IMG/VR virus record: IMGVR_UViG_3300044949_001773
Coordinates: 1-64,000 of that record
Origin: a virus
Reading direction: 5' to 3' (one strand)
Length of the DNA: 64,000 bases
The translations under genes were made by a program, and so were the position numbers. How positions within the stretch are numbered: position 1 is the stretch's first letter; each line of letters starts with the position of its first letter. This document shows positions 23,865 to 54,832 of the stretch, in pieces. The notes beneath the pieces were generated by a model. It did not search any database. It was not told where the DNA came from and saw nothing but the letters and a program-made list of their open reading frames with translations.

Positions 23865-23979
23865 TTTGACAATCTTTGTCAAATATGATATAAATTATCT
23901 TATGGGCATCAAAGGTCCAAACTTTGAGTAAGTCCTACCCCTCCTATGCCTCTCAACGATGCACAAACCTGGAGGCCTT

Positions 23980-53816: not shown

Positions 53817-53830
53817 GTAACAAAAGTTAC
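53817..53830 (+). promoter_or_regulatory. NtcA-type binding site
   Basis: GTA-acaaaagt-TAC (GTA-N8-TAC) upstream of TTGACT-18-TATAGT. Confidence 0.65.
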
Positions 53831-53875
53831 AAAAGTACTTGACTATATAATCTGAATGGGTCTATAGTGACCTCA

Positions 53876-54092
53876 CGTTCATCCCACATGGGACGGAAGT
53901 AAGCCGACTCGGAACGGATCGTTCATCTATGGAAACACTTTTATTGACTTGTTTGCAGGCGCAATTTATGATTGCCCGGGTAGATATGAATAAAAATATT
54001 ACTCCTAAAATTAGGAACGATATTGTTTGGGAAATTAAACAAGTTACTAAAAAAGGTTGTTTCCAAGACGCAAAAGCCGACTGAAGGAACGC
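53876..54092 (+). ncRNA. Tandem glutamine (glnA) riboswitch aptamers
   Basis: cgttcatccc..gggacggaagtaagccgactcggaacg, then cgttcatct..agacgcaaaagccgactgaaggaacg. Confidence 0.8.
53929..54084 (+). CDS. 51-aa ORF embedded in the second riboswitch aptamer
   Basis: METLLLTCLQAQFMIARV...IVWEIKQV...DAKAD*; open across the whole P2 insertion. Confidence 0.6.
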   Translation: METLLLTCLQAQFMIARVDMNKNITPKIRNDIVWEIKQVTKKGCFQDAKAD

Positions 54093-54124
54093 TCTTTAAC
54101 CTAAAAAACTAAGGAGAAAACCTA

Positions 54125-54262
54125 ATGTCTAAAGTAGTATATCGCGGTGTTGAGTATGATACTCAAAAGCGTTTAGAGTATCAACATCAAATGATGCAGC
54201 AACCACAACAATACAACGAAACTTATCGTGGAGTTAAGTTTGTAAAGGAGGGACATAAGTGA
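54125..54262 (+). CDS. DUF4278-like peptide (YRGV motifs)
   Basis: SD aaggag; MSKVVYRGVEY...TYRGVKF; typical of genes downstream of glutamine riboswitches. Confidence 0.8.
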   Translation: MSKVVYRGVEYDTQKRLEYQHQMMQQPQQYNETYRGVKFVKEGHK

Positions 54263-54442
54263 TGAAAAAACTTAACGTCCTTCAATTAATAAAAGAGCAA
54301 AAACAAAAAGAAGACCGTCGTTATCAGGCACAACTAGCACAGTTAGTTGGGTCAAAATAATGATAATTATTGCACAAATTACAATAGCTTCTGCTGCAAC
54401 TATTGCTTTATTGTCATTATATATTCAGTGGTTATATAAGTA

Positions 54443-54610
54443 ATGGATTACCATTACCACTGGGATGATATGGATAAGAATAGCAGAGATCCTGCTTGTT
54501 ATCAATTAACATATCGAGGATGTAAATACTGGTCTTGTTACAGAATACATTTACGAGAGTGGTTTGAACAAATTTTGGATATTGATCCAATTTATAACAA
54601 GAGGGGTTGA
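54443..54610 (+). CDS. Small protein with a DUF4278-like LTYRG motif
   Basis: ...CYQLTYRGCKYW...; followed by a terminator hairpin. Confidence 0.55.
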   Translation: MDYHYHWDDMDKNSRDPACYQLTYRGCKYWSCYRIHLREWFEQILDIDPIYNKRG

Positions 54611-54832
54611 CGATCCCTCTTTTTTTATGTAAAATGAAAAAAGAAATCTATGAGTAATGAATCAACAAAAAGTAAATTTAATAATTCAAAACATTGAAAC
54701 CTTATTGGATTTGTTAAAACTTGAAGTGAAAGATCCTCTTCATGAGGAGTCAGATAACATTATTAAATTGGGAGACTTAATAAAAGGTCCAATAGATGAT
54801 TATGAACCAAACTATTATGAGGAAGAAGACTA

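Follow-up and report, generated by a model that had tools for sequence, protein, structure and literature searches.

A small gene under purifying selection lies within the P2 helix of a glutamine-I-type riboswitch aptamer in T4-like cyanophages

Results

An open reading frame splits the second aptamer of a tandem riboswitch

The stretch analysed here, referred to as the window, comprises 64,000 nucleotides (nt) of viral DNA: positions 1 to 64,000 of the IMG/VR virus record IMGVR_UViG_3300044949_001773. Its source is a T4-like cyanophage of a lake, with a tRNA array and wcaG and PhotoRC-II RNAs present; the nearest records are Kyanoviridae from lake and reservoir sources. Our subject is a tandem glutamine-I-type riboswitch in this window, whose second aptamer is interrupted by a complete open reading frame (ORF) of 51 amino acids (aa). 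The elements of the locus, all on the plus strand, are the following.

53874-53920, plus strand: aptamer 1 of the tandem glutamine-I-type riboswitch, compact, with a P2 of 4 base pairs (bp) and a loop of 4 nt
53920-53925, plus strand: P1 5' strand and junction A of aptamer 2 (CGTTCA), pairing with 54087-54091 in the minimum free energy (MFE) structure
53926-54068, plus strand: expanded P2 of aptamer 2, 143 nt, with a closing helix formed by 53926-53937 and 54058-54068
53929-54084, plus strand: nested gene for a 51-aa protein of the phrog_504 family, ATG at 53929 and TGA at 54082-54084
54067-54091, plus strand: conserved 3' half of aptamer 2, comprising the last 2 P2 pairs, the junction, mini-P3, GAAGG and the P1 3' strand GGAACG
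54092-54116, plus strand: expression platform, in which CTCTTTA (54092-54098) pairs with the Shine-Dalgarno (SD) sequence TAAGGAG (54110-54116) in both the MFE and the centroid structure
54125-54262, plus strand: downstream gene for a 45-aa YRG-repeat peptide, DUF4278/IF17-like, starting 33 nt after P1

In cyanobacteria, the glutamine-I riboswitch (glnA RNA, RF01739) precedes gifB/DUF4278 genes (Klahn et al. 2018, PMC6212724; Weinberg et al. 2010, PMC2864571). The hairpin following junction A is called P2 here, after the nomenclature of the solved glutamine-I structure (Ren et al. 2015, as described in PMC6698751). Aptamer 1 aligns with the full Rfam model RF01739 (positions 1-53) at 34.3 bits and an E-value (E) of 1.1e-5, the gathering score being 35, and homologous aptamers 1 in relatives reach 35.6, 34.2 and 28.9 bits. 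In the MFE structure of aptamer 2, P1 is formed by CGUUC (53920-53924) and GAACG (54087-54091), including the terminal C:G pair that contacts glutamine in the glutamine-I aptamer. Aptamer 2 also has the ACG junction and, on the opposite strand, GAAGG; its J2/3 strand reads ACGCAAAAG where the family consensus is ACGGAAGUA, and the glutamine-II consensus likewise shows CGC at this deviant place.

The downstream 45-aa YRG peptide matches phrog_5049 (E 1.3e-10); its PF14105 match (E 0.0019, 18.9 bits) stays below the cut-off of 25.3. Among unique downstream tails, an SD followed by an ATG occurs in 148 of 151, and the SD is paired in the MFE structure of 84.

A reading made from the sequence alone, hereafter the sequence-only reading, had described P2 of aptamer 2 as expanded to about 145 nt and as enclosing a 51-aa ORF, with its ATG (53929) in the 5' arm and its TGA (54082) in the conserved core. 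The expansion measures 143 nt (53926-54068), where a loop of 4-10 nt is usual, and the ORF coordinates hold. The start codon is part of the closing helix of P2, in its 5' arm and 4 nt away from the junction, and no in-frame ATG, GTG or TTG lies between the preceding stop and this ATG. At the other end, the 3' half of the aptamer (54067-54091) includes the last five codons and the TGA of the nested gene, and the C-terminal tail of the protein, DAKAD, consists of codons of the aptamer core.

The nested frame is a gene under purifying selection

The nested protein matches phrog_504 with E 1.9e-6, over profile positions 10-52 of 53. When the window's own 131,809-bp record was searched in six frames with phrog_504, a single match was obtained (E 6.4e-7); this record and five isolates contain one match each, in every case the nested ORF. 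A hidden Markov model (HMM) search retrieved 271 cluster representatives of the family at E <= 0.001. Cys8 and Cys44 of the nested protein are invariant in 25 members of less than 60% mutual identity.

AlphaFold2 predicts a two-helix hairpin (helices 8-20 and 26-39) with a predicted local distance difference test (pLDDT) score of 85.4; the DAKAD tail is of low confidence. Pfam returned no match for the protein, Foldseek against the Protein Data Bank returned nothing at E <= 0.001 for its model, and the ESM Atlas returned only an unnamed cluster, with a score of 0.80. All 75 of its sequence homologues are labelled 'hypothetical' or unnamed.

To compare relatives, IMG/VR was scanned separately with the 5' arm (at least 119 loci) and with the 3' half (at least 120 loci). 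The sample of expanded elements consists of the IMG/VR matches listed, the phage isolates and the window; all element counts given here and below are lower bounds, not frequencies. Among the matches listed, 172 places carry the 3' half: 141 are expanded, 18 are compact and 13 lie too near a contig end. Wherever enough upstream sequence exists, CGTTCA is found within 300 nt upstream (159 of 159 3' halves).

The same layout was found in the isolates DSL-LC03, S-SRM01 and DSL-LC02, of about 70% DNA identity, whose nested ORFs encode 51, 55 and 50 aa and differ by an in-frame 3-nt indel and many synonymous changes. Altogether, the split layout with an intact ORF recurs in 138 of the 141 expanded elements listed, which is more than chance would provide. 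In 134 of them the core TGA closes an uninterrupted ORF whose ATG follows GTTCA by 8-10 nt; three (L150, L176, L186) stop 3 nt short of the core, with a TAA or TAG in the 3' arm, and one (L189) reads the core in another frame. Stops or frameshifts in homologous inserts, named along with the sequence-only reading as what would refute it, are rare: the ATG and the TGA share one frame in all but one of 126 unique elements (125 of 126), and premature stops occur only in 3 of 141 (L044, L108, L111).

In 119 unique intact elements the ORF frame contains 0 stops and each of the five other frames 181-615. The ratio of nonsynonymous to synonymous substitution rates (dN/dS, Nei-Gojobori), computed on interior codons with the first 3 and last 8 codons excluded, is 0.14-0.23 in all 8 length groups and below 1 in 662 of 662 pairs. 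The nested ORF is therefore a genuine gene under purifying selection.

These results also bear on the idea that the insert is a non-coding structured RNA extension whose open frame is incidental. In its favour, the isolated element of the window folds somewhat better than its shuffles (z = -2.7, 1 of 200 shuffles folding equally well). The interior dN/dS of 0.14-0.23, indels in multiples of three, a frame that is stop-free in 119 of 119 unique elements (vs 0-25 in the other frames), the confident AlphaFold2 fold and the lack of interior covariation described below all speak against it, and we consider it hardly tenable.

Selection on the two aptamer halves at the RNA level

Two long-range pairings had been put forward in the sequence-only reading. 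The first, TCT-A-TGGAAACA (53926-53937) with TGTTTCCA-AGA (54058-54068), is the closing helix of the expanded P2 and is present in both the MFE and the centroid structure. The second, ACTTGTTT with AAACAAGT, forms in the MFE structure and finds no support across relatives. The suggested search for stem covariation divides in the same way: the closing helix covaries, and the second pairing and the other interior helices show no covariation in excess of composition.

In relatives, the closing helix occurs in sequence variants such as TCTATGG/ATAGA, TCCTTATG/TAAGGA, TCCCATG/TGGGA and TCCTCATG/TGAGGA, and its contiguous pairs number 6.6 on average. The 58 arm-pair types average 6.05 pairs vs 3.87 +/- 0.23 with permuted partners, a value that 0 of 2000 permutations reach, although such permutation tests overstate independence because the sequences are related.

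The 3' half was further examined in elements retrieved by the 5' arm only. Among the matches listed, GAAGGAACG stands at the expected place in 83 of 89 unique segments, 2 others being variant and 4 unrelated; all of the true elements (85 of 85) retain GGAACG past the stop codon, and conservation drops immediately beyond it. Since the P1 3' strand lies past the nested stop codon, coding cannot explain this conservation. The P1 strands are invariant in 37 of 37 aligned relatives, the 3' strand having belonged to the retrieval pattern. At the third position of the Cys44 codon, a base of the 3' arm that is paired in the closing helix, at least 90% of these 37 sequences have T; at that of the Cys8 codon, about half have T and half C.

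Translation of the core yields GRK-stop in aptamer 1, and DAKAD-stop or ETQKPTEGT in aptamer 2. The same core is thus read in different frames, and therefore it is the RNA that dictates the protein tails and not the reverse. Conservation and covariation together indicate selection at the RNA level on the closing helix and on each half of the aptamer.

Nine distinct compact aptamers, with a P2 of 15-20 nt, share the identical 25-nt 3' half of aptamer 2. Of the nine loci tested, seven pass the RF01739 gathering score, with 36.9-40.1 bits, the match position being confirmed on the motif in six of the seven (L195 excepted); the loci L153 and L155 gave no RF01739 match.

It could be argued that the insertion inactivated aptamer 2, leaving aptamer 1 as the sole sensor, and that the halves were kept for other roles, serving as leader and start context for translation, as the C-terminal codons and as the leader of the next gene. 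The deviation of the J2/3 strand from the consensus E-loop strand would fit such a loss, as would the absence of an Rfam score for aptamer 2 and a 143-nt loop that should slow folding. Yet in 7 of 9 loci the compact form of the same deviant core scores above the Rfam gathering threshold, the closing helix covaries, GGAACG past the stop is kept in 85 of 85 listed elements where the sequence beyond is variable, and the core is read in three frames among members, so that coding cannot explain its conservation. A relic aptamer thus seems improbable to us. That a genuine gene is nested within a genuine aptamer, as the sequence-only reading had it, is very probable.

Inside the insert, no comparable signal was found. 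Across the 37 relatives, the interior helices of the window MFE structure are paired in 68.0% of cells vs 67.5% in shuffled data, a level reached by 47 of 500 shuffles, and their covariation score is matched by 106 of 500 shuffles; these helices exceed slid controls, as expected of any structure derived from one aligned sequence. RNAalifold reports no structure inside the insert. Conserved interior RNA structure was rejected, there being no excess of pairing or covariation over shuffles; the P2 interior is most plausibly plain coding sequence.

The layout is widespread and occurs in either aptamer

The sequence-only reading had called the architecture unusual; it is instead common in T4-like cyanophages, and is found in aptamer 1 of relatives as well. 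The phages P-HM1 and P-SSM4 hold an ORF in both aptamers, and P-RSM6 in the second only. A scan with the aptamer-1 3' half gave at least 207 places, of which 124 are compact, 73 expanded and 10 too near a contig end. Every unique expanded aptamer-1 element (63 of 63) has an ORF of 59-72 aa that starts in the 5' arm; it ends at the core TAA in 27 of 63, and 4-16 nt before the core in 36 of 63. The proteins of these ORFs are homologous, from Cys to Cys, to the aptamer-2 family (hhalign 96.4%, E 1.2e-9).

Compact and expanded aptamers are found in all four possible pairings, with the following counts from what is a pattern-biased sample.

Aptamer 1 compact, aptamer 2 compact: 11 places listed
Aptamer 1 compact, aptamer 2 expanded: 73 places listed
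Aptamer 1 expanded, aptamer 2 compact: 9 places listed
Aptamer 1 expanded, aptamer 2 expanded: 54 places listed

The nested-gene layout is thus widespread in T4-like cyanophages, be it in one aptamer or in both. In 185,579 prokaryote genomes, exact matches to the 3'-half variant of aptamer 2 were confined to 2 contigs: one of 189,106 bp from a Prochlorococcus single-cell assembly, probably phage since an IMG/VR virus contig of equal length has the motif too, and a 3.7-kb contig of a metagenome-assembled genome from a lake.

Two further observations concern the family. In L008, L009, L010, L017 and about 30 other IMG/VR loci, from freshwater relatives, aptamer 1 holds an ORF of 66-72 aa that has a signal-peptide-like N-terminus (starting MTKALLLLAWVPLLS) and two Cys; these ORFs end 12-16 nt before the core in varying register, and that of L242 ends 4 nt before it. 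The family members P0149, P0158, P0167, P0219 and P0224 have C-terminal tails unrelated to either aptamer core, and may reside in other aptamer variants or outside aptamers. No locus related to P0167 or P0224 was found in IMG/VR, and P0149 and P0167 gave no tblastn match in phage records.

Metatranscriptome contigs and the borders of P2

The leader and the DUF4278 gene are represented in contigs from lake metatranscriptomes, though contigs from RNA libraries do not prove transcription and reveal neither transcript starts nor strand; four RNA runs contain just 4-5% of the sampled words. A contig of 176 nt (X3 record 11) aligns without gaps over 53903-54078. It crosses the nested ORF and ends before its stop at 54082, and is silent on translation.

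In metatranscriptome contigs of close relatives, a hairpin of 17-20 nt replaces exactly 53927-54067. One of them (X1 record 1) carries a 20-nt hairpin between flanks that differ from the window at 0 positions in 39 nt and at 7 in 164 nt. Such precise replacement suggests that P2 contents were recently gained, lost or swapped at these borders in the manner of a cassette.

These data bring up the most serious alternative: the gene may be a passenger that occupies an insertion-tolerant loop, the aptamer working without ribosomes and no interplay between the two having been selected. The near-invariant halves may then act as homology arms for swapping P2 contents. Several results agree with such a cassette: all four compact/expanded combinations occur, near-identical flanks enclose a 20-nt hairpin in place of exactly 53927-54067 in relatives, the insert interior is without conserved RNA structure, and one protein family is found in either aptamer (hhalign 96.4%, E 1.2e-9). 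The presence/absence pattern is accounted for equally well.

Against it stands the way in which gene and aptamer interlock. The ATG lies within the closing helix in 141 of 141 expanded aptamer-2 elements listed, 8-10 nt past GTTCA, and likewise in each of the 63 unique aptamer-1 elements, there at about 9-11 nt (10-12 when counted from the C of CGTTCA); the stop nearly always falls within the core or the 3' arm, the insert is never a free-standing gene with its own spacers, and the nested start codon is without an SD of its own. Such interlocking over at least 24 clusters of less than 60% identity suggests more than tolerance, although genome compaction could mimic it. We hold a mere passenger to be unlikely, though it deserves to be taken seriously.

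Upstream and downstream surroundings

A promoter candidate precedes the riboswitch.

53839-53868, plus strand: sigma-70-like promoter candidate, TTGACT and TATAGT separated by an 18-nt spacer, with 10 of 12 consensus matches

It would place the transcript start at about the first base of aptamer 1. The evidence for it is weak, because the region contains 5 such sites vs 4.5 expected from shuffles. Just upstream of TTGACT at 53839, an NtcA-type palindrome GTA-N8-TAC stands at 53817-53830; this motif occurs 17 times in the window vs 8.4 expected. The canonical spacing between an NtcA box and the -10 hexamer is 22 nt. From the box to the candidate -10 hexamers the distance is 15 or 32 nt, and NtcA-type control is not claimed.

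In the MFE structure of the whole leader (53860-54125), the P1 5' strand of aptamer 1 pairs with the P1 3' strand of aptamer 2; we give this cross-pairing no weight, because the P1 strands are identical in both aptamers. We note that GGAACG-GAT-CGTTC between the aptamers can form a hairpin, and that the identical P1 strands permit alternative registers.

Past the DUF4278-like gene, tiny ORFs of 33, 27 and 55 aa are chained (54259-54610) by stop/start overlaps or abutments, GTGATG at 54259, ATAATG at 54360 and TAATG at 54443, and the chain ends at a terminator-like hairpin (54599-54621). Elsewhere in the window, an abiF RNA (RF03085, 47.6 bits) lies at 23940-23976 within the tRNA array; phage S-CREM1 has an abiF RNA inside its tRNA array as well (PMC9964418).

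Discussion

We propose that the locus is a tandem glutamine-I-type riboswitch heading a micro-protein operon of the cyanophage, and that P2 of its aptamer 2 has been expanded to house a selected gene for a 51-aa helical-hairpin protein with two cysteines. We favour this explanation and give it a probability of roughly 0.6.

The geometry of the locus suggests how translation of this gene and folding of the aptamer could be antagonistic. A 30S subunit on the nested AUG, covering about -20 to +15, would require P1 and P2 of aptamer 2 to be unpaired, and would probably also disrupt the 3' strand of aptamer 1. Conversely, an aptamer 2 stabilised by glutamine would hide the nested AUG. A ribosome terminating at the UGA would cover the P1 3' strand and reach the anti-SD element, 8 nt further. 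A translated copy could thus not be a folded aptamer, because the 30S subunit would open P1 and P2 and the terminating ribosome would occupy the P1 3' strand.

Upstream of DUF4278/IF17 genes, glutamine riboswitches turn expression on by making the ribosome site accessible (PMC6212724, PMC6698751). If the nested AUG is hidden in the ligand-bound state, this known ON behaviour makes reciprocal output the simplest model: low glutamine would yield the nested protein, and high glutamine the downstream IF17-like peptide. That the nested gene and aptamer 2 are functionally antagonistic or reciprocal in output is a tentative proposal, to which we would give somewhat less than even odds. As the polymerase passes the AUG about 140 nt ahead of the 3' half, the first round of translation would escape such control.

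Several observations weigh against our interpretation. Reciprocal control would be blurred, because a ribosome terminating at the UGA would also open the anti-SD hairpin. The nested AUG is without a Shine-Dalgarno sequence, the 8-10 nt that precede it being the P1 strand. The assignment of the aptamers is itself imperfect: aptamer 1 scores 0.7 bits below the RF01739 gathering score and is without the GAA of the opposite E-loop strand. Half of the E-loop signature is absent from aptamer 2 (ACGCAAAAG for ACGGAAGUA), and a search of this aptamer in Rfam gave no RF01739 match even at E <= 10, which we ascribe to a covariance model that cannot span a 143-nt insertion. The invariance of the retrieval motifs is partly by construction, because the loci were retrieved by exact patterns. 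Finally, the four layouts and the hairpin swaps at exact borders fit a dispensable cassette equally well.

The aptamer described here shares much with the known glutamine-I riboswitch: the CGUUCA...GGAACG P1, a P2 after junction A, the ACG junction, the mini-P3 with GAAGG, the tandem form, a DUF4278-like downstream peptide and a platform that sequesters the SD. It differs in its J2/3 strand, ACGCAAAAG for ACGGAAGUA, and in a P2 of 143 nt that holds a conserved gene starting and stopping on nucleotides of the aptamer.

Other RNAs in which structure meets translation offer partial parallels. The leader ORF mgtL lies in the Mg2+-responsive leader of Salmonella mgtA. Translated upstream ORFs are also described in the platforms of mycobacterial B12 riboswitches (10.1101/2022.06.01.494293, 10.1101/2024.07.19.603033). 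Here, as there, a translated ORF would overlap RNA elements whose alternative folds set downstream expression, with competition between ribosome and structure. Those leader ORFs, however, are short sensors in the platform or between stems and are not known to be conserved as folded proteins, whereas the cyanophage inserts encode a 50-72 aa family under purifying selection, inside the ligand-binding aptamer itself. We considered a leader-peptide attenuator of the mgtL/trpL type and rejected it: the interior dN/dS of 0.14-0.23 and the predicted fold do not fit a peptide whose sequence is unimportant outside its sensor codons.

Group I introns of phage T4 carry looped-out homing-endonuclease ORFs, and translation into the intron core disturbs folding. 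The resemblance lies in a gene placed in a peripheral loop of a structured RNA in a T4-like phage, in its presence/absence polymorphism and in the conflict between ribosome and folding; the host RNA of our case, however, is no ribozyme but a sensor for a small molecule, about 50 nt long, and the ORF is not a nuclease and has its ends fused to the RNA core. SgrS/SgrT and RNAIII/hld are dual-function RNAs whose coding and base-pairing parts are mostly separate. Like them, the cyanophage element combines RNA and coding functions in one transcript segment; unlike in them, its start and stop codons are conserved aptamer positions.

In the literature searched, which did not extend to Ames and Breaker 2011 and supplementary files, no description of an ORF within a glutamine aptamer was found. 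The riboswitch class, its tandem form, its occurrence in cyanophages and its DUF4278 partner are already known; what appears to be new is the link to nested ORFs.

Riboswitch aptamers are usually treated as non-coding, and gene callers and Rfam each catch half of this locus: the ORFs stand in GenBank as 'hypothetical proteins', and the split aptamer is missed. Censuses of riboswitches consequently miss insert-bearing members, and the phrog_504 family has a hidden regulatory context.

A wider and more doubtful proposal is that expanded aptamers are two-output switches, in which a single ligand-bound fold would turn on the downstream IF17-like peptide and silence the gene in its P2; the phage would thus express alternative small effectors according to the glutamine of the host. 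The two-Cys family, phrog_504 together with the aptamer-1 relatives, would then be host-manipulating and essentially confined to aptamers, and the halves would serve as recombination handles by which phages exchange these cassettes.

If expanded aptamers bind glutamine, a ligand-binding fold can carry a whole selected gene in one of its helices. They would then offer a natural overlap of RNA- and protein-level selection, measurable per site, and possibly a one-sensor, two-output reader of host nitrogen in abundant marine and freshwater cyanophages.

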